A DNA stretch of 64,000 nucleotides, taken from assembly GCA_029237815.1 (NCBI GenBank), contig JAQZBP010000002.1, positions 206,917-270,916 of the forward strand. Reading direction: 5' to 3'. The DNA comes from Moraxellaceae bacterium (GTDB taxonomy: Bacteria; Pseudomonadota; Gammaproteobacteria; Pseudomonadales; Moraxellaceae). Each line of letters opens with the position of its first letter. Within the stretch, counting starts at the first letter, position 1. The notes beneath the pieces were generated by a model. It made no database searches. It was given only the letters and a program-made list of their open reading frames with translations, and was not told the DNA's origin. Shown here piece by piece: positions 7,744-51,598 of the stretch. The position numbers and the translations under genes are program-made.

Positions 7744-10608
7744 ATGAAACGCATGCTGATCAATGCCACGCACGCCGAAGAAAAGCGCGTCGCGATGGTT
7801 GATGGACAAAGACTTTACGATTTCGATCTCGAGCACACTGCTCGCGAGCAGAAAAAAGCCAATATCTACAAGGGCAAGGTGACGCGCGTCGAGCCCAGCC
7901 TCGAAGCCGCCTTCATCGATTACGGTGCCGAACGCCACGGCTTCCTGCCCTTGAAAGAAATCGCCCGCGAATACTTCAGCAAGTCGCCCAAAGAAGCCGG
8001 CGGCCGCATCACCATTCGTGACGCCATCCGCGAAGGCCAGGAAATCATTGTCCAGGTCGAGAAAGAAGAGCGTGGCAACAAGGGTGCCGCCCTCTCCACC
8101 TTCATCTCGCTGGCGGGCCGTTACCTTGTCCTGATGCCCAACAATCCCCGTGCCGGCGGCATTTCCCGCCGTATCGAGGGAGAGGAACGGCAGGAACTCA
8201 AGGACGCTCTCAACGCCATCAACATTCCGCAGGACATGGGCGCCATTGTCCGCACCGCCGGCCTTGGCCGCAGTGCCGAGGAGCTGCAGTGGGACCTCGA
8301 TTACCTGCTGACGCTGTGGACCTCCATCAAGGCCGCCAGCGAGCGCCCTGCCCCTTTCCTGATCTATCAGGAATCCAACGTCATCATTCGCGCCGTGCGC
8401 GACTATCTGCGCCAGGACATCAATGAAGTCCTGATCGATGCCGAACCCGCCTATAACGAGGCCATGAGCTTTGTGCAGCAGGTGATGCCGCACTATCAGC
8501 AGAAGCTCAAGCTGTACAAGGACTCCGTCCCCCTCTTCAACCGCTACCAGGTTGAAGGCCAGATCGAGACCGCCTACCAGCGCGAAGTGAAGCTGCCCTC
8601 CGGCGGCTCCATCGTGATCGACCCGACCGAAGCGCTGGTCTCCATCGATATCAACTCCTCGCGCGCCACCAAGGGTGGCGACATCGAGGAGACCGCGCTC
8701 AACACCAACCTGGAAGCAGCAGACGAAATCGCCCGCCAGCTGCGCCTGCGTGATATCGGCGGCCTCATCGTCATCGACTTCATCGACATGACGCCGGTCA
8801 AGCACCAGCGTGCCGTTGAGGATCGCCTGCGTGACGCCCTGGCCATGGACCGCGCCCGCATCCAGATGGGCCGCATCTCCAAGTTCGGCCTGCTGGAGCT
8901 CTCCCGCCAGCGCCTGCGTCCGTCACTGGAAGAAACCACCGGCCTCGTCTGCCCGCGTTGCAACGGCACCGGCGTGATCCGTGACGTGCGTTCGCTGGCG
9001 CTGTCCATCATGCGCGTGATCGAGGAGGAGGTGCTCAAGGAGCGCTCCGCCCAGATCAATGCGCAGGTGCCTATCTCCGTGGCCACCTTCCTGCTCAATG
9101 AAAAGCGCGGAGCGCTCACGCAGCTCGAGACCCGCAGTGGCGTGCGCATCGTCATCCTGCCCAACGAGCACCTCGAGACGCCGCATTACGAAGTCTCGCG
9201 CCTGCGCGATGACCAGATCGAAGAAGGCGACGAGGACACCGCCAGCTTCAAGCTGGTGGAGCGCATCCAGCCGCCGGCCAATGAAGAAGTGCTGAACTCC
9301 GTCGAGGACGCGCCGCGCCGGCAGGAAGCGGCTGTCAAGATGATCCAGCCGGGCCAGGCGCCCGCGCCGCGCCAAGCTCCGGCGGCCCCGGCCCCGGCCC
9401 CGGCGCCGGCAGCAGTCGCTCCGGCTCCTGCCGTGGCAGATGCCAGCAAGCAGGGCTTCTTCGCATGGCTGACCAACCTGTTCGGCAGCGGCGAGAAGGA
9501 AGCCCCGGTCGTCGCCGAGGCTCCCAAGAAGCAGGAAGGCCGCCAGCGCCAGCGTAGCGAGGGTCGTCGTGACGGCAACCGCCAGAATGGTCGCGGTCGC
9601 GGTGAGCGTGACCGCAACGAACGCAGCGACCGTAGCGATCGCATCGAGACCGTCGGGCAGCGCGAGCAGCGCGAGTCCCGCCAGGAGCGGGGCGAGCGTC
9701 AGGGTGGCGAGACCAATCGTCGTACCGTGATCGAGGGTCGTCGCGTCGAGATCGAAGGACGCGCAGAGGGTGAGCAGCGAGAAACGCGCGAGCCCCGGCA
9801 GCCGCGTGAGCCTCGCGAAAACCGCGAGCCGCGTGAACCTCGTGAGCCCCGCGAACAGCGTGAACCTCGCGAGCCCCGCGGCGAACGCGGCCCGCGTCCG
9901 GAACGTGAACCGCGCCCGCGTCGCGAAGAGGCCGATGCCACGGCTCCCGTTGCTGCAACGGAAGTAGTCGCGGTTGAAGGCGAGCAGCGCGTCGAAGGGG
10001 ACCGCCCCCGTCGTCGCGGTCGCCACCCCAATCGCCGCCAGCGCGGTCCGCGCGAGCGCGACCAGCAGGTGCTGATTGAGGAAGGCCTGATCCCGGCGGA
10101 AGGCGGAGCACAAGCCGCAGCAACTCCCGTCGAAGCAACAGTGGCAGCCGAGATCCTGGCTGAGACGCTTCCTCAGGAAAACGCTGCAGCTGAAGCCGCC
10201 TCGACTGATCTGCCGCGTCCAGCAAGCATTGAGGTCGCTGAAGTTGCGCCGCTGCTGCCCGCGGCAGAAGCAGAAGATCAGCCCGCTACAACTGCTCCTG
10301 GAGCGGTGGTGAGCATGACGATCAGCGCCGATACCACCACTTCGGCCATCGAAGCACCGGTCTACACACCACGCGCACCGGGCCGGGCCGCAAACGACCC
10401 GCGCGAGCGTCGTCGTCGCGAGCAGGCTAACATGCAGACGTCACAGTCGGCGGCCGCACCTGCACCGGAAGTGGCGGTGACGCCAGCCACCGCGGAAACG
10501 TCTGCTCATGCAGAGGCAGATGTTGTGCAGGCTACTTCGGTAACTTCTACCGACACGACGCCGACCTCCATCGTTGAGGGAACTTCGTCGGAGCCAGCGG
10601 AGCGCTAG
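7744..10608 (+). CDS. rne: ribonuclease E
   Basis: 954-aa ORF starting [30 protein letters not shown] (S1 and catalytic domains), with a long Arg/Glu/Pro-rich non-catalytic C-terminal half. Confidence 0.95.
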
Positions 10609-10620
10609 ACGCTCTCGAAT

Positions 10621-10656
10621 AAAAAAGGGGCGGTTGATACCGCCCCTTTTTTTATT
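10621..10656. terminator. bidirectional rho-independent terminator between rne and the convergent hydrolase gene
   Basis: aaaaaaGGGGCGGttgataCCGCCCCttttttt. A GC stem is flanked by an A-run and a T-run. Confidence 0.7.
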
Positions 10657-10671
10657 TCCGCTTTCTGCTGC

Positions 10672-28072: not shown

Positions 28073-28984
28073 ATGGCATCGTGGAAACGCTTGATCGGCA
28101 TGCGCCAGGCCAACCCGGAATGGTTCTGCAGCCATGAGGGCTGCAACCACCTGGCGGCGGACGACACGCTCGCCATCACCTATCTGGGTACGGCAGGCTT
28201 CATCCTCAAGGGGGCGGAGCGCACCATCGTGCTCGATCCGTATGTGTCGCGCCCGGGGCTTGTGGACACGCTCACCGCACCGCTGCAGCCCGATACGGCC
28301 CTCATCCGGCAGATCATTCCGCGGGCCGACGACGTCCTCATCGGACACGCCCATTACGACCACATCCTCGACGCGCCGGACCTCTGCCGGCAGACCGGCG
28401 CACGGCTGATCGGTTCGGCGTCGGCGATCCAGGTCGGCCGCGCCGCCGGATTGCCGGAATCGCAACTGCTCGCCACGGCCGGACGCGAGGACATCGCCTC
28501 GGGCGCCTGGACGGTGCGCGGTCTGCCCTCGCGGCACGGGCGTGTATTCGGGCGCATTCCGTTTCCCGGCGACATCACCGCCCCTCCCCCGTGGCCGCCC
28601 CGCATGAGTGACCTGAAACACGGCCCGGTGCTGAACTGGATCGTGGACACGGGCGGGCTGCGGATTGCCCACATCGACAGCGCCGACTTCATCAACGATG
28701 AGCTGGCGGGGCAGCACGTCGACGTGGTCTGCCTCTGCGCCATCGGGCGCAACTACCGCAAGGACTATGTGAAGGACGTGGTGCACCTGCTGCAGCCGCG
28801 CTGGATCATCCCCTGCCACTGGGACACGATGCTGACGCCCCTGCACGCCGAACCCGACCTGATCCCGGGCGTGGACCTGCCGGGGATGCTGAACGAGATC
28901 GTCGCCGAGGGCGTGCAGCCACTGCTGACGCCGCTCCTGGGCCTGCAGCGCCTGCCGCTCTCTCCGGAGATATGCCCTCGCTAG
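28073..28984 (+). CDS. MBL-fold metallo-hydrolase
   Basis: 303-aa ORF with the HAHYDH metal-binding motif. Convergent with rtcR. Confidence 0.7.
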   Translation: MASWKRLIGMRQANPEWFCSHEGCNHLAADDTLAITYLGTAGFILKGAERTIVLDPYVSRPGLVDTLTAPLQPDTALIRQIIPRADDVLIGHAHYDHILDAPDLCRQTGARLIGSASAIQVGRAAGLPESQLLATAGREDIASGAWTVRGLPSRHGRVFGRIPFPGDITAPPPWPPRMSDLKHGPVLNWIVDTGGLRIAHIDSADFINDELAGQHVDVVCLCAIGRNYRKDYVKDVVHLLQPRWIIPCHWDTMLTPLHAEPDLIPGVDLPGMLNEIVAEGVQPLLTPLLGLQRLPLSPEICPR

Positions 28985-29083: not shown

Positions 29084-30682
29084 TCACAGAGCGGTGACGG
29101 CGCCCCAGTCCAGGCCGAAGCGCGCCAGGTACTTGCGCAGGCGGTCAGTATCGTTGGGCGTGCTGCGCCTCTCTCGGCTGCGCGCAAACAGGCGGCGTCC
29201 GGCCTCGGCCAGGCTCCCGCATTCGCGACAAACTTCCACCACATGCTCGAGCTGGACACGATCGAAGTCGTCAAGCGTTGCCAGCAGCGCCACCGGCAAG
29301 ACGGCGCTAGTTCCCTCTCCCGTCGTCGCCTCGCCCGAAGGCCGCTCCCAGGCCATGCGCAGACGCTGGATCTCGCGTTCCACCGTGGCGGTGGTGATGC
29401 GCCCACTGGCGGCCAGCGCCGCCATTCGCCGCACCGACGCATAAAGATCTCGAAAGTTGCCGTGCCAGGGTGCGGCCGCCGACAACGCAAAGCCCAGGTA
29501 ATGCGCCTTCGCCTCCCGGTTGAAGCGCACCAGCCGCCCCTCGCGCTCGGCGAAACGCTCCAGCTCGTAGTCGACGTTGGGCTCGATATCCTCCCGCCGA
29601 CGCGCGAGCCCGGGCAGATGGAAGGTCCAGACATTGAGGCGGGCAAACAAATCCTCGCGAAAGCGGCCCCGCGCCACGTCCACACGCAGGTCGCGGTTGG
29701 TGCCGGCGATGAGCTGGAACTCCGAACGCACGTCACGATCAGCGCCCATCGGCAGGAAGGTCTTTTCCTCCAGCGCCTTGAGCAGCATGGCCTGCTCGTC
29801 GAGGCCGAGCTCGCCGATCTCGTCGAGGAAGAGTTGGCCGCCGTCGGCACGCTTGAGCAGGCCCTCGCGCGCGCTGGCTGCACCGGTGAAAGCTCCCTTC
29901 GCATGACCGAATAGCGTGCTCATGGCGGTATCCCCACGCAGCGTGGCGCAGTTCACTTCAACGAAGTCGCCACGGAACTGGTGACGCTGGCGCTTCAGCT
30001 CGTAAAGACGCCGCGCCAGATGCGATTTGCCGGCGCCAGTGGGGCCGATCAGCAGCAGCGGTTCGCGCGAGCCGATGGCCACCTGTTCCATCTCGTCGAT
30101 CATGGCGTTGAAGGCGGCGTTACGCGTGGCGATGCCTGCCTTAAGATGACTGACCGCGTCCTCTTTCTCGCGCGCAAAGCGCTCGGCCAAGCGATCATAG
30201 CGGGAGAGGTCGAGGTCGATGACGGTGCAGCTGCCCCCCGGCCCCTCTCCGTCACGTGGCGGCGAAGTCTGCAGTATGCGCGCGGGCAGGTAACGGCTCT
30301 CGGTCAGCAGGAACCAACAGATCTGCGCCACATGCGTGCCGGTGGTGAGGTGAACCAGGTAGTCCTCCTCTTGCGTGCGGAAGGGATAGGCGCGCACGAA
30401 GTCGTGCAGCTTGGCGTAGACCTCCTCGAAGTCCCAGGGATCGCGGAAGTACATGTCGTGAACCACCAGCTCGATCGTGGGCGCGATTTCGGCGATATCC
30501 GCCTGCACCTGGGCCAGCAAGCGCGAGCTGCGGCGACGGTCGCAGAGCAGCTCGATGCGGTCGACGCCGAGCGCGGCCTGATGGGCGATGCCGACCGTGG
30601 GCCGCCAGTGCTTCTTGCGCTCCTCACCCTTGCCGCGGGCGTCGAGCTGGGTGCCGAGGAAGCCAATGACGACAGTTTTCAT
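29084..30682 (-). CDS. rtcR: sigma54-dependent transcriptional activator RtcR (CARF-AAA+-HTH)
   Basis: N-terminal 180 aa align closely with the E. coli RtcR CARF domain (VIGFLGT..WRPT..DRIELL..HDMYFRDPWDFEEVYAKLHDF..EEDYLVHLTTGTHVAQICWFLL..RYLPARILQTSPP). It is followed by the AAA+ sigma54-interaction domain (GPTGAGKS, GAFTGA) and a C-terminal HTH. Confidence 0.9.
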   Translation of the reverse strand: MKTVVIGFLGTQLDARGKGEERKKHWRPTVGIAHQAALGVDRIELLCDRRRSSRLLAQVQADIAEIAPTIELVVHDMYFRDPWDFEEVYAKLHDFVRAYPFRTQEEDYLVHLTTGTHVAQICWFLLTESRYLPARILQTSPPRDGEGPGGSCTVIDLDLSRYDRLAERFAREKEDAVSHLKAGIATRNAAFNAMIDEMEQVAIGSREPLLLIGPTGAGKSHLARRLYELKRQRHQFRGDFVEVNCATLRGDTAMSTLFGHAKGAFTGAASAREGLLKRADGGQLFLDEIGELGLDEQAMLLKALEEKTFLPMGADRDVRSEFQLIAGTNRDLRVDVARGRFREDLFARLNVWTFHLPGLARRREDIEPNVDYELERFAEREGRLVRFNREAKAHYLGFALSAAAPWHGNFRDLYASVRRMAALAASGRITTATVEREIQRLRMAWERPSGEATTGEGTSAVLPVALLATLDDFDRVQLEHVVEVCRECGSLAEAGRRLFARSRERRSTPNDTDRLRKYLARFGLDWGAVTAL

Positions 30683-30690
30683 TCTATCTA

Positions 30691-30742
30691 TCCGTATAGC
30701 CTTCCTAGCTTTATAGCGCTTTTTATATGCTTCCGTACAGCC
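30691..30742. promoter_or_regulatory. direct repeats TCCGTATAGCC / TCCGTACAGCC; candidate RtcR upstream activator sites
   Basis: Two 11-mers 41 bp apart, located 100-140 bp upstream of the sigma54 -24 element and next to the rtcR start. Confidence 0.3.
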
Positions 30743-30772
30743 CCACCCCGCGGAATCAAGGGCGACTTAAAA

Positions 30773-30785
30773 TAATTTATTGATA
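30773..30785. promoter_or_regulatory. putative IHF site (TATCAATAAATTA on the reverse strand)
   Basis: Matches WATCAANNNNTTR within an AT-rich stretch between the repeats and the sigma54 promoter. Confidence 0.3.
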
Positions 30786-30830
30786 TTTTTCATTAGCTTG
30801 CCTCTGAACACCTCCTTCTTTCGCCAATGC

Positions 30831-30846
30831 TGGCACGCCCCTCGCT
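30831..30846 (+). promoter_or_regulatory. sigma54 (-24/-12) promoter of the tRNA-mimic/SPFH/rtcB operon
   Basis: TGGCACGccccTcGCT against the consensus TGGCACGnnnnTTGCW, with correct GG-N10-GC spacing. Divergent from rtcR. Confidence 0.6.
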
Positions 30847-30984
30847 ATATCCCCCTCGCCACACCGCACGGCTCCTGAGACAGGCGTCCCACGCCGTGGC
30901 GCACTGCCCTGTCCCCCGGTAGGTCCGGACATGGGGCGGGTGCGTACCGGGCCGGGTGGAACGGCAATGCCCTGTTAAGGCATC

Positions 30985-31054
30985 GGGTTTGTAGCTCAGG
31001 GGTAGAGCAGCGGCTTCGGCCGTGGACGCGGGTTCGAGTCCCGCCAGACCACCA
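30985..31054 (+). ncRNA. tRNA-like RNA 1: cloverleaf whose anticodon arm is replaced by a cUUCGg tetraloop hairpin; encoded 3' CCA
   Basis: Acceptor GGTTTG/CAGACC (6 bp), U8A9, D-arm GCTC-AGGGGTA-GAGC, hairpin GCGGC-TTCG-GCCGT, variable GGAC, T-arm GCGGG-TTCGAGT-CCCGC, then ACCA. Confidence 0.6.
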
Positions 31055-31126
31055 CTGTTGTAGCTCAGTCGGGTAGAGCACCGATCTAAACCGTCGGCTG
31101 TCGCGGGTTCGATTCCCGCCAACACC
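31055..31126 (+). ncRNA. tRNA-like RNA 2: pseudo-tRNA with a 7-nt anticodon loop CUAAACC (anticodon AAA, C37), imperfect acceptor stem, no encoded CCA
   Basis: Acceptor TGTTG/CAACA (5 bp plus a C:C mismatch), D-arm GCTC-AGTCGGGTA-GAGC, anticodon stem CCGAT/GTCGG, variable CTGTC, T-arm GCGGG-TTCGATT-CCCGC. It starts 1 nt after RNA 1. Confidence 0.55.
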
Positions 31127-31394
31127 GCGTTAACCACGCGATCTGAAAAACCGAGAAGGCGATGCCGTGTCGCCGGTCCGGGACGAGGTGGAGGCCAAGC
31201 CAGAATGGCTGGCCAATGCCCCGCCCCGGGCCACCCGGCCAGAGGCCGGCCGACACGTCGCCGCGGGACCGGCGCACCGGAGGCGATTGCTCCGGTCGCC
31301 CGCCCCGCGGCCACCCGAGGCCCCCGCTGTCCGGGGGCGGCACGGCAAAGCCCGATCACTTGATGACAATGAAGAACAGCAAGGAAGAAAGAAG

Positions 31395-32606
31395 ATGAAC
31401 ACGAAGACCAACACCCGAATGAATTCCCTGGACCCGCGTTGCAAGACCGTCCTCGGCGCTTGGAAGACCTGGCGCGTCGAGGCCGACGAGCGCGGCCTGC
31501 TGTACCGCTACGACACCCCCGTCGCCGTGCTGCGCGCCGGCGAGCACCGCTTCTTCGATCCGCTCGGCAAGCTGCGCGCGGAAGTCTCGACGCTGAGCCA
31601 GCCGCTGTTCCGCTCCGCCCAGGAAGACTGGCTGCGCGCGGAACGCCGCGAATGGCTGGAGACCGAGTGGCAGGCGGTGGAGACCGGCGCCGATGAGCTG
31701 GCCTGGGTGCGCTACAACGGCAAGCTTGCCGACGTGCTGCCGCCCCGGACCCGCGCGCTGTACTGGCGCGGCTTCGTGGAGGTGAGCGTGGAGCGCGTGG
31801 ATCTTTCAGCGACGCTCGAGGTGGCCCCGGCGCTGCTGCGCGAGCTCGCCAACACGAGCTTCGTGGGCGCGCACGCCTCACCGGCCCAGGTCGTGATGCA
31901 GGTGGAAGTGCCGTCTTATGCGGTGGGCGTACTGACCGTCGACGACGGCGAAGCGCGCCTGCTGACACCGGGCCGCTACGGGTTCTACCGCACCGGTCGC
32001 AACATCGGCTTCCAGACTGCGGACACGCGCGAGCAGGCGCTGGAAATCAGCGGCCAGGAAATCCTGACCGCGGACAAGGTGGCGCTGCGCGTGACCGTGG
32101 GCGTGAGCTGGAAGGTGGCGGACGTGCTGGCCTGCCAGCGCGAACTGGCCAAGCCGGGCGAGCACCTGTACCGCGAGGTGCAGTTCGCGCTGCGCCAGGT
32201 GGTGGGTACGCGCTCGCTGGACACGCTGCTGGAAGACAAGACCGCGCTGGACCGCGAGGTGCTGGAGCTGGTGAAGCCCCGGCTGGAGGGCCAGGGCCTG
32301 GCCGTTGTGCGGGTGGGGGTGAAGGACATCATCCTGCCCGGCGACATGAAGGCCATCCTGACCCGGGTGGTGGAGGCCGAGAAGGCCGCTCTGGCGAACG
32401 TGATCCGTCGCCGTGAGGAAACCTCTGCGACCCGCTCGCTGCTGAACACCGCCAAGGTCATGGAGGACAACCCGGTGGCGCTGCGCCTGAAGGAGCTGGA
32501 AACGCTGGAACGCATCACCGACAAGATCGGCAACATCTCGGTCTACGGTGGCCTGGAAGGCGTGCTGCAGGATTTGGTGAAACTGGCACCGGCGAGCAAG
32601 CAATGA
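31395..32606 (+). CDS. SPFH/band-7 (stomatin/prohibitin-like) domain protein with a novel ~180-aa N-terminal domain, no TM segment
   Basis: C-terminal half has the SPFH core (..VRVGVKDIILPGDMKAILTRVVEAEKAALANVIRRREETSATRSLLNTAKVMEDNPVALRLKELETLERI..). Start at the ATG at 31395 preceded by AAGGAAGAAAGAAG. The upstream in-frame stretch of the 479-aa listed ORF is low complexity. Confidence 0.8.
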   Translation: MNTKTNTRMNSLDPRCKTVLGAWKTWRVEADERGLLYRYDTPVAVLRAGEHRFFDPLGKLRAEVSTLSQPLFRSAQEDWLRAERREWLETEWQAVETGADELAWVRYNGKLADVLPPRTRALYWRGFVEVSVERVDLSATLEVAPALLRELANTSFVGAHASPAQVVMQVEVPSYAVGVLTVDDGEARLLTPGRYGFYRTGRNIGFQTADTREQALEISGQEILTADKVALRVTVGVSWKVADVLACQRELAKPGEHLYREVQFALRQVVGTRSLDTLLEDKTALDREVLELVKPRLEGQGLAVVRVGVKDIILPGDMKAILTRVVEAEKAALANVIRRREETSATRSLLNTAKVMEDNPVALRLKELETLERITDKIGNISVYGGLEGVLQDLVKLAPASKQ

Positions 32607-32685
32607 CCCGTGCCGGGCGGCAGGACGCCGCCCGGTGCGGAACTCCCTCGGCAAGATGAGAGGAATGACCAAGCACAGGCTTTTG

Positions 32686-32900
32686 CAGGGCTGAGCGCGA
32701 AATGGCGAGCGGCCGGCAAAAGTGTTTACGTAGCCGGTGAAGGGTAAAACCGACGGCATTGGCGGCAGCCGGTAATTTGAGGATGCAGCCCCGGGGTCCG
32801 AGCAAGGTTCCGAGGGTGTCGCGCGTTTAAAGGACTGCCGCACGCGGGAGTAATGCCCCGTGGCTGCCTATTGCGGGTTCGAGTCCCGCCAGCCCTGCCA
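32686..32900 (+). ncRNA. roughly 215-nt structured RNA with an 8-bp terminal stem, a T-arm identical to tRNA-like RNA 1, and a 3' CCA (Y-RNA-like)
   Basis: 5' CAGGGCTG pairs with 3' CAGCCCTG-CCA. The T-arm GCGGG-TTCGAGT-CCCGC precedes the 3' strand. An inner stem GCGCGA/TCGCGC and several GC-rich hairpins lie between. The RNA sits in the 358-bp gap between the SPFH gene and rtcB. Confidence 0.45.
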
Positions 32901-32964
32901 AGGCCTGTGCCATATCGGGTAACAGGAGCCGCGCCGACATGGCCGGCCCGGAGAAGCGAAGAAG

Positions 32965-34191
32965 ATGGACCATACGCATGAAATCTGGCAGCCGGCGCCG
33001 CAAAGCCGGCCCATCAAGATGTGGACCTCGGGCGTGCCCGTGGAAGCCGAGGCCCGCGCCCAGCTTGCCAACATCGCGCAGCTGCCCTTCGTATTCCGGC
33101 ACGTGGCGGTGATGCCCGACGTGCACCTGGGCAAGGGCGCGACCGTAGGCTCGGTGATCCCCACCAAGGGCGCCATCATCCCTGCCGCCGTGGGGGTGGA
33201 CATCGGCTGCGGGATGATCGCCGCGCTCACCTCGCTCACGGCCAAGGACCTGCCGGACAACCTGCAGGGCCTGCGCGCCGCCATCGAGCGCGCCGTGCCG
33301 CATGGCCGCAGCGTGGGCCGCGGCAAGCGCGACGAAGGAAGCTGGAGCAATCCGCCCGCCGAGGCGCTGGCGGCCTGGTCGACCCTGGCCGACGGCTTCA
33401 GGGCCATCACGGAAAAGCATCCGCGCCTGAAGAACACCAACAACGTGCAGCACCTGGGAACGCTGGGGACCGGCAACCACTTCATCGAGATCTGCCTGGA
33501 CGAGGCCGACCGCGTCTGGTTCATGCTGCATTCGGGGTCGCGCGGGGTGGGCAATGCCATCGGGACCCACTTCATCGAGCTGGCCAAGGCGGACATGCGC
33601 CGCCACTTCATCAACCTGCCCGACCAGGACCTCGCCTACCTGCCGGAAGGGACTCAGCACTTCGAGGACTACTGGCAGGCGGTGGACTGGGCGCAGCGCT
33701 TCGCCATGAAGAACCGCGAGGTGATGATGGGAGCAGTGGTACGCGCCGTCGGCGCCGCGCTCGGGAAGCCGTTCTCGGCAACGCAGGAGGGGGTGAACTG
33801 CCACCACAACTACGTGTCGCGCGAGCGCCACTTCGGCGAGGACGTGCTGGTGACACGCAAGGGCGCGGTGAGCGCGAAGGAAGGCGAGCTCGGGATCATT
33901 CCGGGATCCATGGGCGCCCGCTCCTACATCGTGCGCGGCAAGGGCAACCCGGAGTCGTTCTGCTCCTGCAGCCACGGCGCGGGGCGCGTCATGAGCCGCA
34001 CCAAGGCCAAGGCGCAGTTCACGCTGGAGGACCACCGCCGCATGACCGCGCACGTGGAATGCCGCAAGGACGCGGCGGTGATCGACGAGACCCCGGCGGC
34101 CTACAAGGACATCGAGGCCGTGATCGCCGCCCAGGCCGATCTGGTCGAGGTGGTGCATACCTTGCGGCAGGTGGTGTGCGTGAAAGGCTGA
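32965..34191 (+). CDS. rtcB: RNA-splicing ligase RtcB (3'-phosphate/5'-hydroxy nucleic acid ligase)
   Basis: 408-aa ORF with KMWTSGVPVEAEA, MPDVHLGKG, GTGNHF, NCHHNY and CSHGAGR, all hallmark RtcB motifs. Confidence 0.95.
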   Translation: MDHTHEIWQPAPQSRPIKMWTSGVPVEAEARAQLANIAQLPFVFRHVAVMPDVHLGKGATVGSVIPTKGAIIPAAVGVDIGCGMIAALTSLTAKDLPDNLQGLRAAIERAVPHGRSVGRGKRDEGSWSNPPAEALAAWSTLADGFRAITEKHPRLKNTNNVQHLGTLGTGNHFIEICLDEADRVWFMLHSGSRGVGNAIGTHFIELAKADMRRHFINLPDQDLAYLPEGTQHFEDYWQAVDWAQRFAMKNREVMMGAVVRAVGAALGKPFSATQEGVNCHHNYVSRERHFGEDVLVTRKGAVSAKEGELGIIPGSMGARSYIVRGKGNPESFCSCSHGAGRVMSRTKAKAQFTLEDHRRMTAHVECRKDAAVIDETPAAYKDIEAVIAAQADLVEVVHTLRQVVCVKG

Positions 34192-50773: not shown

Positions 50774-51598
50774 TCAGTGGGATGTGGCGGGTTTGCGGCC
50801 GGCGGCCACGGCGGCCGGCGCCGGCTGGCGGACGCGCCGCCAGATCTCGCGGCCGGCGCGATCGAAGTCGAGCACGGTCGCCACGAAGGCGCGGCGCTCG
50901 GCGATGTCCACCAGGGGATCGGGCAGCAGCGGATCGAACACGAGCTGCCGGATGGCGTCGCTGCCCTGCAGGAAGGATTCGCGTGCGGCGACATCGGGCT
51001 CGAGTTCACCGGCGCGCGCCAGCCATTTCTGGAGCTGCTGGCGCGTCTGCCGGTAGCGCTTCGTCAGCGCCTTGCCGTCCCAGAGCGCGCGGGCACGCTT
51101 CTCCCGCGACGTGTCGAGCTCGCTCGCGAGGAAGACCGCGGCGTCCTCCTCCAGGCCGAGTTTGTGCAGGCGCTCGCGCACGCCGGCGACGCCGCCGACG
51201 AGGTTGTCGGGGCGCAGGAACAGGCCGCGATCGAGCTCGCGCAGGCCAAGCAGGGCGAGGGCGCGGTCCCGCGCACGCAGGGCGACGCGGTCGCTGCGGC
51301 CGAGGGCGCCGACATGCACGGCGACCCAGCCGCCCTGCCACTCGCGCACGCGCTGCTCGGCCGTCGGCCAGGTGGCCACGTCCGCAGCCAGGCCGGTGCC
51401 ATTGGGCCCCAGGCGGTAGCTGCCACGGCCGGCGGCTTCGATGAGGCCGGCGCCGGCCAGGCGGACCAGGGCCACGCGCACGCTGTTCTCGCGGATGCCG
51501 AACAGGGCGCAGCCGGCGACGGCGTCACGCGCGCTGAGCTCGCCGTCGTCGGCAGCCAGCAGGAGCTTGAGGATCAGTTGACGGGGTTGGGGAGCCAT
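50774..51598 (-). CDS. PaaX-family transcriptional regulator
   Basis: N-terminal wHTH (LILKLLLAADDGELSARDAV) and a PaaX C-terminal domain. Confidence 0.7.
   Translation of the reverse strand: MAPQPRQLILKLLLAADDGELSARDAVAGCALFGIRENSVRVALVRLAGAGLIEAAGRGSYRLGPNGTGLAADVATWPTAEQRVREWQGGWVAVHVGALGRSDRVALRARDRALALLGLRELDRGLFLRPDNLVGGVAGVRERLHKLGLEEDAAVFLASELDTSREKRARALWDGKALTKRYRQTRQQLQKWLARAGELEPDVAARESFLQGSDAIRQLVFDPLLPDPLVDIAERRAFVATVLDFDRAGREIWRRVRQPAPAAVAAGRKPATSH

Follow-up and report, generated by a model that had tools for sequence, protein, structure and literature searches.

The window, which is the whole 64,000-nucleotide stretch of Moraxellaceae DNA analysed here, carries a divergent pair of rtcR and an rtcB-terminated operon together with several RNA elements (Table 1). 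All five elements claimed in the earlier note (RtcR, tandem tRNA-like RNAs, an SPFH protein, a long structured RNA and RtcB) are present in the sequence, with slight corrections of the coordinates.

Table 1. Features of the rtcR-rtcB locus, numbered from the first letter of the window.
Feature	Position	Strand	Remarks
rtcR, CARF-domain sigma54-dependent transcriptional activator	29084..30682	-	divergent from operon
sigma54 -24/-12 promoter element TGGCACGCCCCTCGCT	30831..30846	+	pattern match
small leader hairpin TGCC-CTGTTAA-GGCA	30968..30982	+	directly 5' of unit 1; read from sequence
tRNA-like unit 1	30985..31054	+	ARAGORN; Rfam tRNA 48.2 bits
tRNA-like unit 2 (b7a-tRNA; counterpart of P. 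aeruginosa PA4581.1)	31055..31127	+	Rfam tRNA 47.8 bits
hairpin similar to leader hairpin	31127..31139	+	3' of unit 2; read from sequence
GC-rich spacer / Band-7 5' UTR	31128..31394	+	conserved block GGCGATGCCGTGTCGCCGG at 31168-31186
Band-7/SPFH ('slipin') protein, 403 aa	31395..32606	+	predicted soluble, MVP-like; Pfam Band_7
GC-rich hairpin without T tract	32610..32638	+	directly 3' of Band-7 stop codon; stem in cmscan alignment
RNA3, 214-nt tRNA-like RNA	32687..32900	+	covariance model R1 152 bits, E 2e-45
rtcB, 3'-phosphate/2',3'-cyclic-phosphate to 5'-OH RNA ligase	32965..34191	+	last operon gene; Pfam RtcB 447 bits

The rtcR product was assigned by NCBIfam NF038308 (RtcR equivalog; 796.5 bits against a cut-off of 650) and by the Pfam domains PF06956 (RtcR/CARF) and PF00158 (Sigma54_activat). 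The gene faces the operon from the minus strand, as expected for the divergent CARF-domain sigma54 activator proposed before, and falls just outside position 30691, the start stated in the earlier note. The claimed sigma54 promoter was also found; its sequence is identical in several Pseudomonas loci, and 57 of the 62 rtcR-containing loci keep an element of the same form at a distance of 137-189 nt from the rtcR start codon. No intrinsic terminator was called on the plus strand between 30600 and 34600, the hairpin behind the Band-7 gene included. Since the elements downstream of the promoter are co-oriented and have no recognisable terminator between them, they are consistent with one predicted transcription unit of leader, tRNA-like units 1 and 2, Band-7, RNA3 and rtcB.

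Both tRNA-like units are conserved RNAs with strong covariation. Their scores lie above the Rfam tRNA gathering score of 29 bits, and ARAGORN sets the boundaries at 30985-31053 and 31054-31128. Unit 1 has a canonical D-arm and T-arm, an anticodon stem capped by a 4-nt UUCG tetraloop and a 3' end reading ...ACCA; across 73 loci its T-stem covaries, and a CCA-type end is common among its relatives. Unit 2 combines a 7-nt loop (CUAAACC), a T-arm and an invariant D-arm with an acceptor of only 4 bp (GUUG/CAAC) and lacks CCA. In a MAFFT alignment of the 73 loci, 97.2% of the unit 2 cells are paired, against 36-48% with partners slid, and every anticodon-stem and acceptor pair covaries. Unit 2 has no conserved loop sequence, the 'anticodons' called by ARAGORN vary between loci, and the anticodon loop is replaced by a UUCG tetraloop in unit 2 of five relatives (L038, L054, L058, L063 and L064). 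RNAs with such tetraloops take no part in decoding and present no anticodon-loop target for anticodon nucleases, and the 4-bp acceptor of unit 2 makes excision of the RNase P type uncertain.

In most of 84 related loci, the Band-7 gene has tandem T-arm motifs with a spacing of 60-95 nt on its 5' side, where ARAGORN also makes calls, in line with the tandem pair described earlier. The loop motif of the leader hairpin also occurs 3' of unit 2 in L036, L064 and L080. The Infernal/Rfam search that had been suggested matched both units to tRNA and returned no family for RNA3 (cmscan). The YrlA model stayed at 39.3 bits, below its gathering score of 69, with a match spanning the junction of both units, and the permuted-tmRNA model gave one weak match over the pair (25 bits; gathering score 47).

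Between the tRNA-like pair and the Band-7 gene lies a spacer of 165-520 nt in 85 loci (median 282), in which the block GGCGATGCCGTGTCGCCGG is identical in the metagenomic relative L083 and recognisable in distant loci. A Band-7 start at GTG 31167 was given by the ORF lister; ATG 31395 is favoured by the homologues and by a ribosome-binding site. The protein has at least 7570 homologues and consists of two beta-rich N-terminal repeats, an SPFH domain (Pfam Band_7, residues 171-342, 2e-21) and a long C-terminal helix. Its AF2 model (mean pLDDT 81) matched MVP in Foldseek over 406-446 columns (E about 2e-11), whereas stomatin and HflKC matched over only about 230 columns. Full-length alignment, covering the N-terminal domain, SPFH and long helix, was obtained with MVP only; the SPFH-plus-helix part matches cage-forming stomatin, HflKC and flotillin. 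No transmembrane segment was found, and the absence of any 19-residue window above a Kyte-Doolittle value of 1.37 supports a soluble protein. Overall, the protein appears soluble, and its resemblance to the major vault protein extends along the full chain. Solubility had been proposed before and stands, while the N-terminal domain, then called uncharacterised, is part of the full-length MVP alignment.

RNA3 corresponds to the structured RNA of about 215 nt with a T-arm and CCA that had been noted earlier, there without being singled out as possibly undescribed. Its ends form a 7-bp acceptor (AGGGCUG/CAGCCCU) and a T-arm (GCGGG-UUCGAGU-CCCGC), followed by G73 and an encoded CCA, and its body contains a D-like stem, an anticodon-like hairpin and, at the variable-loop position, an insertion of about 130 nt with five helices. 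The family covers at least 78 loci and shows 10 helices with strong covariation; CCA is encoded in 65 of the 68 distinct copies. Alignment A8 has 95.7% of its cells paired, against 37-44% when slid, and compensatory changes occur in 44 of 58 pairs, a number reached by none of 500 shuffles. For the window copy, the gain in folding over shuffled sequence is not significant (z = -1.19).

RNA3 is found in rtc operons, with Band-7, with Ro60/YrlA or alone, mostly directly 5' of rtcB, and homologues are situated inside rsr-YrlA-RNA3-rtcB operons (L147, L121). It is lacking in most loci with a Band-7-to-rtcB gap of 40-136 nt. L083, the closest relative, has no RNA3, nor do 76 of the 80 species-representative Band-7 loci, which indicates that it is dispensable for the core system. 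Most likely, RNA3 is an RtcB-linked cofactor or adaptor RNA and not a Band-7-specific ligand.

For RtcB, alignment with solved RtcB structures showed the metal-binding and GMP-histidine motifs (DxHxG, DIGCG, GNHF, HSGSRG, SHGAGR), in agreement with the earlier assignment. The gene 3' of rtcB encodes an aminotransferase. As had been claimed for rtcA and Ro60/rsr, tblastn of the 64-kb window gave no match to RtcA, the RlaP nucleotidyltransferase or the Zn-ribbon protein (E<1e-3), nor to Ro60/Rsr (E<1e-8). In L083, whose Band-7 protein is 77% identical, the order is MBL-fold gene, rtcR, tRNA-like pair, Band-7 and rtcB, and rtcR-Band7-rtcB synteny extends to about 30 species representatives. A survey of rtcR neighbourhoods had been proposed, and the tRNA-like pair and the Band-7 gene do recur at rtcR/rtcB loci.

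The locus belongs to the RtcR/sigma54-controlled 'Band-7 / b7a-tRNA / RtcB' RNA-repair system, in a minimal form without RtcA and with one additional non-coding RNA. The operon logic put forward in the earlier note (RtcR/sigma54 control, tRNA mimics, an SPFH accessory protein, RtcB without RtcA or Ro60) was right, but not its statement that no Rtc system of this composition had been described. RtcB operons encoding a Band-7 protein together with a 'band 7-associated tRNA' were predicted by Burroughs & Aravind in 2016 (NAR 44:8525, as summarised in bioRxiv 10.1101/312249 and PMC13404743), and P. aeruginosa has an equal layout of PA4581 rtcR, PA4581.1 'tRNA-Arg4', PA4582 SPFH (PaFlo8) and PA4583 rtcB (PMC13637947, PMC13086221, PMC8619066). 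Only RNA3, as a conserved 214-nt tRNA-like RNA directly 5' of rtcB, may be a new component.

The operon would probably function as an inducible RNA-protein scaffold serving RtcB. We infer this function from the anatomy of the locus and from analogy; the roles suggested before (decoy, scaffold, cofactor) agree with proposals already in print. RtcR is activated by damaged tRNAs, nicked or in fragments, that carry 2',3'-cyclic phosphate ends (PMC7790460, PMC10159003) and which, following published work on the Salmonella and E. coli Rtc systems, would be produced by ribotoxins or stress nucleases and would switch on the operon via the CARF domain. tRNA-processing enzymes could then excise the tRNA-shaped modules from the transcript. 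The Band-7 protein may oligomerise by its C-terminal helix, like MVP and other SPFH proteins, and may bind the nuclease-resistant tRNA mimics, as the Ro60-Y RNA and vault-vtRNA pairs would suggest. Such an RNP could serve as scaffold or adaptor, recruiting RtcB and perhaps further tRNA-binding factors to broken tRNAs so that these are resealed.

In P. aeruginosa, qRT-PCR detects PA4581.1, and the proteins PA4582-PA4585 are induced together; the PA4581.1 level is unchanged on induction of the Rtc proteins (PMC13637947), which suggests that its transcription is partly RtcR-independent. For the paFlo8 deletion, assays of growth, virulence factors, motility, biofilm and oxidative stress gave no phenotype (PMC13086221). 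This result and the basis in analogy weigh against the scaffold reading.

It is conceivable, though rather unlikely, that the tRNA mimics act as decoys or competitive inhibitors. Induced uncleavable RNAs would then sequester toxins that attack tRNA (anticodon nucleases, acceptor-end modifiers) or enzymes that bind it, with RtcB mending cut tRNAs and Band-7 merely stabilising or storing the RNAs. The UUCG tetraloops of window unit 1 and of unit 2 in five relatives would fit, as would the CCA ends of unit 1 and RNA3, and Hughes et al. proposed YrlA's tRNA-like domain, uncut by an SOS-induced anticodon nuclease, as a competitive inhibitor (PMC7790460). However, the anticodon loop missing from these RNAs is the main recognition site of anticodon nucleases, and they would have to compete with the cell's tRNAs, whose pool is very large. 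Nor would this reading explain the conserved 130-nt insertion of RNA3 or why there is a strict linkage to a vault-like protein.

We give little credence to the idea that the tRNA-like elements chiefly serve as processing signals ('tRNA punctuation'). On this view, RNase P and enzymes of 3' processing would cleave at them, so that the Band-7 and rtcB messages are parted and stabilised, and the RNAs released would have no function of their own. The placement of the elements in the leader and between both cistrons, the small hairpins flanking the pair and the M. smegmatis YrlA, which is cut by RNase P and gets CCA (PMC4201824), point in this direction. Yet punctuation needs neither two units nor an invariant D-arm nor a covarying five-helix insertion, unit 2 with its short acceptor would be a poor RNase P substrate, and most loci with 40-136 nt between Band-7 and rtcB lack RNA3.

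The earlier suggestion of sensor substrates for anticodon nucleases fits poorly and is very improbable. Here, toxin-cut fragments of the mimics with cyclic-phosphate ends would be the RtcR CARF ligand, in keeping with the known response of RtcR to such ends and with the 7-nt loop retained in window unit 2. Both RNAs, however, are placed downstream of the RtcR-dependent promoter, so that as sensors they could provide at best positive feedback; unit 1 and, in several relatives, unit 2 carry tetraloops, the unit 2 loop sequence is not conserved, and YrlA fragments were not detected in Salmonella (PMC7790460). An assembly chimera, or decayed tRNA genes or junk beside rtcB, has a negligible chance of being correct, as the gene order recurs in L083, an independent metagenomic relative, and in dozens of genomes, all three RNAs covary strongly and the promoter is conserved, the folding score of the window RNA3 being the sole weak point.

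Compared with the P. aeruginosa PA4581-PA4585 type, the window shares the divergent rtcR, the sigma54 promoter and the order of tRNA-like RNA(s), soluble Band-7 and rtcB; identities to Pseudomonas loci are about 50% for Band-7, 64% for RtcR and 72% for RtcB. Unlike that type, it lacks the RlaP-type nucleotidyltransferase, RtcA and the Zn-ribbon protein, has RNA3 between Band-7 and rtcB, and carries a CCA end on unit 1, which Pseudomonas unit 1 does not. With Salmonella rsr-yrlBA-rtcBA (Ro60, Y RNAs, RtcB/RtcA) it has in common RtcR/sigma54 control and a scaffold protein and tRNA-mimicking non-coding RNAs encoded 5' of rtcB, but the putative scaffold is the Band-7/MVP-like protein, without a Ro60/TROVE gene. 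In the predicted b7a-tRNA/Band-7/RtcB systems, Band-7 and Ro60 modules are interchangeable (bioRxiv 10.1101/312249).

RNA3 resembles the tRNA-like domain of tmRNA in its open 7-bp acceptor, T-arm and encoded CCA ending a much longer RNA. G3:U70 and A73 form the alanine identity set used by tmRNA, and G3:U70 is present in 53 of the 68 RNA3 members, mostly with A73, whereas the window copy has G3-C70 and G73. Unlike tmRNA, RNA3 has no tag reading frame, possesses a D-like arm and bears its insertion at the variable-loop position; at RNA3 there was no ARAGORN tmRNA call and no match to the Rfam tmRNA models.

Relative to the eukaryotic vault (MVP and vault RNAs), MVP has nine repeats against two N-terminal ones in the window Band-7 protein (four in homologues with a duplicated N-terminus), and sequence identity is 15-17%. 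The window RNAs resemble tRNAs rather than vault RNAs, and on the SPFH-plus-helix part stomatin and HflK/C slightly outscore MVP. Bacterial 'MVP homologs' share operons with RtcB (PMC13404743). Like the vault, the Band-7 model combines beta-repeat domains, an SPFH-like shoulder and a long cap helix, and its gene is linked to small structured RNAs.

Open reading frame listing together with Pfam, NCBIfam, ARAGORN and Rfam searches recovered all elements that the earlier note had recognised at the locus, i.e. RtcR, a sigma54 element, a pair of tRNA-like RNAs (units 1 and 2), a Band-7 (SPFH) protein, a CCA-ended RNA (here RNA3) and RtcB. The start of the Band-7 gene was moved from GTG 31167, where a mechanical 479-aa ORF opens, to ATG 31395; homologues begin at the downstream ATG, and the upstream 'extension' is GC-rich and non-coding. 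The analysis establishes which parts the operon has and how they are arranged, as well as the promoter and that the RNAs are real.

Features of the rtc locus, with positions in the window and supporting evidence
Feature	Position	Strand	Evidence
rtcR	29084-30682	-	NCBIfam NF038308, 796.5 bits (RtcR equivalog cut-off 650); PF06956 (CARF-type) and PF00158 (sigma54-interaction AAA+)
sigma54 -24 GG / -12 GC element, upstream of operon	30831-30846		pattern match, TGGCACGCCCCTCGCT
tRNA-like unit 1	30985-31053	+	ARAGORN; Rfam tRNA, ~48 bits, above gathering score; head-to-tail with unit 2
tRNA-like unit 2	31054-31128	+	ARAGORN; Rfam tRNA, ~48 bits, above gathering score
Band-7/SPFH gene	31395-32606	+	PF01145, 2e-21; ATG 31395
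RNA3	32687-32900 (214 nt)	+	acceptor AGGGCUG/CAGCCCU, T-arm, G73, CCA
rtcB	32965-34191	+	PF01139, 447 bits; catalytic motifs aligned to solved RtcB structures

The rtcR gene is divergent from the Band-7/rtcB operon, and 57 of the 62 rtcR-containing loci among those fetched for comparison have the sigma54 element at the same spacing from rtcR. The loose sigma54 pattern is matched a second time, by TGGCACCGGCCTGGCT, at 51386-51401 on the minus strand; two matches per window correspond to chance level (two or more in 6 out of 100 shuffles). Between rtcR and uvrB an MBL-fold (Lactamase_B_2/3) gene is situated at 28073-28984, a neighbour also kept in the close metagenomic relative L083.

At least 7570 proteins are related to the Band-7 protein. 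Its linkage to RtcB, on which the earlier note had made its reading depend, was seen in about 50 of 80 species-representative loci, where the two genes adjoin on the same strand. The protein is devoid of hydrophobic segments that could span a membrane as a helix, in agreement with the solubility claimed before. An AlphaFold2 model (52 homologues, mean pLDDT 81) predicted two beta-rich N-terminal units, an SPFH domain and a helix of ~65 residues. In a Foldseek search against the PDB, stomatin and HflK/C ranked first with only ~230 columns aligned, while the major vault protein (MVP) entries (9z4w, 9r86, 4v60 and others) were the sole ones aligned over 406-446 columns, corresponding to the whole protein (E ~2e-11). 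The MVP alignment has a TM-score of 0.36-0.37 (normalised by query length) and 15-17% identity and includes two repeats only, stomatin being the better match over the SPFH part. In some Band-7 homologues the N-terminal unit is duplicated, which resembles the duplicated repeats of MVP. Because of this duplication and the full-length MVP alignment, the N-terminal domain, previously called uncharacterised, is best read on the model as MVP-type repeats. The protein itself would, as modelled, be a small soluble relative of the cage-forming SPFH/MVP proteins, and presumably oligomerises as well. A slipin of the Band-7 family was also noted in E. coli STEC639 (locus L158, 3652-5576), together with a nucleotidyltransferase-domain protein, with a DUF3811 gene on one side of the pair and lysC on the other. 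Among 5426 complete E. coli genomes, 1625 match the slipin query with a coverage of 80% or more; no RtcB and no ARAGORN tRNA-like call were found near the pair in L158.

The tandem tRNA-like RNAs are situated 267-410 nt upstream of the Band-7 ATG. Unit 1 carries a 4-nt UUCG tetraloop in place of the anticodon loop, and the same tetraloop occurs in unit 2 of several Pseudomonas and Ralstonia loci. Unit 2 of the window has a 4-bp acceptor, no CCA and a C at position 37. Across the loci, ARAGORN calls odd 'tRNAs' upstream of Band-7 whose 'anticodons' vary from locus to locus. A canonical tRNA was rejected on these features and, since UUCG tetraloops replace the anticodon loops, the units are not decoding tRNAs.

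The earlier note had also made its reading depend on conservation of the RNAs in related loci. In most of 84 loci (80 species-representative and four metagenomic), two T-arm motifs were found 60-95 nt apart, preceding the Band-7 start by ~200-450 nt. When 73 distinct pairs were aligned plainly with MAFFT, the unit 2 stems and the unit 1 T-stem were 97.2% paired, versus 36-48% with slid partners, and compensatory changes occur at every pair of the unit 2 anticodon stem and of its short 4-bp acceptor. The D-arm is essentially invariant in this alignment; the 5' half of unit 1 varies more across the loci, and the unit usually ends in (A)CCA.

The Rfam tRNA model matched both units. YrlA, the bacterial Y RNA for which a check had been proposed, reached 39.3 bits against a gathering score of 69, and no Rsr is encoded in the window; this identity was rejected for the pair. 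The sub-threshold match (31007-31104) joins the T-arm of unit 1 to the D-arm of unit 2 across the unit junction, and dimeric tRNAs can give false YrlA matches (Chen et al. 2014). A common origin of YrlA and the tandem pair is another possibility. The permuted-tmRNA model gave one weak match over the pair (31025-31112; 25 bits, gathering score 47).

Hairpins with loops of the CUGUUAAG/UUAACCA type flank the pair at 30968-30982 and 31127-31139, and the loop motif is also found after unit 2 in the distant loci L036, L064 and L080; these may be processing or protein-binding signals. The spacer between unit 2 and Band-7 (31128-31394) is long and GC-rich; across 85 loci its length ranges from 165 to 520 nt, with a median of 282. 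Within it lies a block of recognisable conservation (31168-31186), reading GGCGATGCCGTGTCGCCGG in the window and identically in L083, and GCAGTACCC..GCCGG in others, which could be a further structured element. In many loci lacking rtcR, the pair and Band-7 are immediately preceded by an array of 10-15 tRNA genes whose anticodons are ordinary (L005, L008, L015, L018, L022, L031, L042, L052, L056 and L077; ~500-2500 nt upstream of Band-7). Because these arrays adjoin rtcR-less Band-7 loci, a link of the Band-7 system to spare tRNA sets is suggested; the window holds no such array.

The T-arms of RNA3 and unit 1 are identical. Homologues were found by nhmmer in four of the 80 species-representative loci, and a pattern of invariant blocks retrieved 73 metagenomic loci, all of them homologues and most full-length; several of these 'invariant' blocks are imposed by the fixed pattern and are thus ascertainment-biased, and the majority subtype is closely related. 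The sequences were trimmed to their exact ends, used to build a covariance model (R1) and re-aligned. The window RNA3 scores 152 bits over the full model, being itself among the model-building sequences. The structure obtained consists of ten helices. Besides the acceptor of 7 bp and the T-arm, there are a D-like stem whose loop carries the GG, an anticodon-like hairpin closed by 8-21 nt of A-rich loop, and an insertion of five helices at the position of the variable loop. In this alignment, which was fitted to R1, 95.7% of the cells are paired, versus 37-44% with slid partners, and compensatory changes occur at 44 of the 58 pairs, a number matched in none of 500 shuffles. Single-sequence folding of the window RNA3 was uninformative (z = -1.19), and the structure therefore rests on covariation. 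A GGUCCGA-like block, partly imposed by the search pattern, forms a local hairpin.

No Rfam family was found for RNA3, either at gathering scores over the whole window and eight related loci or at E<=10 over 30600-33100, where a mascRNA-type T-arm (E 5.4) was the sole match over RNA3. Among known RNAs, tmRNA was rejected (no ARAGORN call, no Rfam tmRNA model matching RNA3), as were YrlA (no Rfam match on RNA3 of the window or of related loci) and a group I intron within a tRNA (no Rfam match; insert too short). A Y RNA was also rejected, as the Ro-binding motif GNCGAAN0-1G is missing from the window RNA3 on reading.

The acceptor is a perfect 7 bp in 67 of 68 distinct copies, and CCA is encoded in 65. 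G3:U70 is present in 53 of the 68, mostly together with A73 (RNA3 alignment A8; e.g. 10429-10661 of the related locus L147); the window copy has G3-C70 and G73 instead. G3:U70/A73 together with CCA is the set recognised by alanyl-tRNA synthetase in tRNA-Ala and tmRNA.

In every locus RNA3 has the orientation of the rtc genes, and the rtcB start usually follows 50-100 nt downstream. Band-7 accompanies it in 39 loci and Ro60 in 15, including L147 and L121 with the order rsr-YrlA-RNA3-rtcB (YrlA placed by Rfam), while in a few loci it follows the RtcR promoter without a gene in between. The closest relative, L083, has no RNA3, and neither do 76 of the 80 species-representative loci. Given the Band-7 and Ro60 contexts, the short distance to rtcB and the absence from most loci, RNA3 appears to be an optional accessory tied to RtcB and not to one particular scaffold. 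An unannotated RNA3 also adjoins rtcB on an Eleftheria terrae plasmid, and the pattern was met at the very end (8088-8187) of an IMG/VR contig classed as viral (L160), in whose 8.5 kb no RtcB, Band-7, RtcR or Rsr was found.

In the literature on b7a-tRNA ('band 7-associated tRNA'), YrlB and MVP with RtcB, in which Burroughs & Aravind 2016 is represented through citing papers, no mention of an RNA3-like RNA was found. We tentatively propose, as a reading that is quite possibly right, that RNA3 forms an undescribed third class of rtc-operon RNAs beside Y RNAs and b7a-tRNAs, of ~205-245 nt, with a tRNA core, a conserved five-helix insertion and an encoded CCA, mostly with G3:U70/A73, and accompanying rtcB irrespective of whether the scaffold is Band-7, Ro60 or absent. 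Such an RNA could be an RNA cofactor directing RtcB or, because most members carry the alanine identity set, an aminoacylatable tmRNA-like molecule.

For RtcB of the window, the NCBIfam equivalog models scored below their cut-offs. The absence of rtcA and Ro60/rsr noted earlier was confirmed by tblastn, which gave no match across the 64 kb for RtcA (the canonical E. coli rtcBA feature), for Ro60, or for the RlaP nucleotidyltransferase and Zn-ribbon proteins. The RtcA query, a Pseudomonas ORF from L036 named by reading its sequence without a family search, matches 35 of the loci fetched for comparison; not all rtc operons include RtcA. In Pseudomonas-type loci (L029, L037, L038, L039, L053, L054, L058, L063) a conserved basic ~125-aa CxxC...CxxC (Zn-ribbon-like) protein is encoded between Band-7 and rtcB. 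After rtcB, such loci carry an ORF reading as a putative RlaP-type nucleotidyltransferase and also RtcA (L036, 7437-9259), and L147 carries a treble-clef zinc-finger protein; none of these proteins is encoded in the window. A strong GC-rich hairpin at 32610-32638, four bases past the Band-7 stop codon, has no T tract; it aligns weakly to the PtaRNA1 terminator hairpin of Rfam and was not called by the terminator scan.

A working model for the operon can be put forward. Damaged tRNAs with cyclic-phosphate ends would activate RtcR, as judged from work on Salmonella and E. coli (PMC7790460, PMC10159003). The further steps are modelled on Ro60-Y RNA and vault RNPs: the tRNA-shaped modules would be excised, the Band-7 protein would oligomerise and bind them, and the resulting particle would act as the adaptor through which RtcB reaches broken tRNAs. 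Against this model, a paFlo8 deletion has no phenotype in standard assays (PMC13086221), and the levels of PA4581.1, the P. aeruginosa counterpart of unit 2, do not follow Rtc induction (PMC13637947); the acceptor of unit 2 is truncated and RNA3 is dispensable in most relatives. The scaffold mechanism taken alone is held as possible but somewhat doubtful, the identity of the system alone as very likely, and the whole package of both as rather probable. That the tRNA mimics instead act as a decoy or competitive inhibitor is unlikely, and that the tRNA-like elements are pure processing signals is distinctly improbable. A cleavable sensor for RtcR is slightly less credible still, given the tetraloops and the location of the RNAs downstream of the RtcR promoter. 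An artefact can practically be dismissed: the assembly chimera considered in the earlier note is argued against by L083 (Band-7 77% identical), which shares the order MBL-fold gene, rtcR, pair, Band-7, rtcB.

Predicted in 2016 by computation alone, the Band-7/b7a-tRNA/RtcB system is experimentally untouched to date; it bears on the repair substrates of bacterial RtcB and on the role of tRNA mimics. The window offers a compact four-part version (tRNA-mimic pair, vault-like protein, RNA3 and RtcB), with neither RtcA nor nucleotidyltransferase, suited to reconstitution. The full-length likeness of Band-7 to MVP connects the unsolved function of the vault RNP with a tractable bacterial operon. RNA3 is the point where the evidence exceeds the descriptions found in the literature; with a covariance model, a covariation-backed structure and a clear genomic context, the family is now a concrete, testable lead.

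The 2016 abstract of Burroughs & Aravind reportedly presents SPFH/Band-7 modules, together with 'a novel tRNA-like molecule', in the role of scaffolding cofactors. That work is summarised in a 2018 preprint, 'Structural basis for transfer RNA mimicry by a bacterial Y RNA' (bioRxiv 10.1101/312249), which states that Band-7 and Ro60 modules sometimes swap RNAs and that b7a-tRNA was without experimental validation as of 2018. In later literature, no experimental follow-up of b7a-tRNA and no physical Band-7/RNA/RtcB complex was found. A 2026 vault-RNA preprint mentions, citing the 2016 paper, bacterial 'MVP homologs' in shared operons with RtcB (PMC13404743). In P. aeruginosa, the SPFH protein PA14_60630/PA4582 (PaFlo8) lies inside the rtc locus (PMC13086221). 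PA4581.1, annotated as tRNA-Arg4, is located between rtcR and the cluster, has no CCA and is detectable by qRT-PCR, and the PA4582-PA4585 proteins rise together (PMC13637947, PMC8619066). As the Band-7/b7a-tRNA/RtcB system is already published, the claim of an undescribed composition fails for the core module, and the locus does not represent a new type of Rtc system, contrary to the headline claim. The window operon belongs to a system that is already known from computational description and is also present in a model pathogen; in comparison with that system it is minimal, being without RtcA, RlaP and the Zn-ribbon protein, and it adds RNA3.
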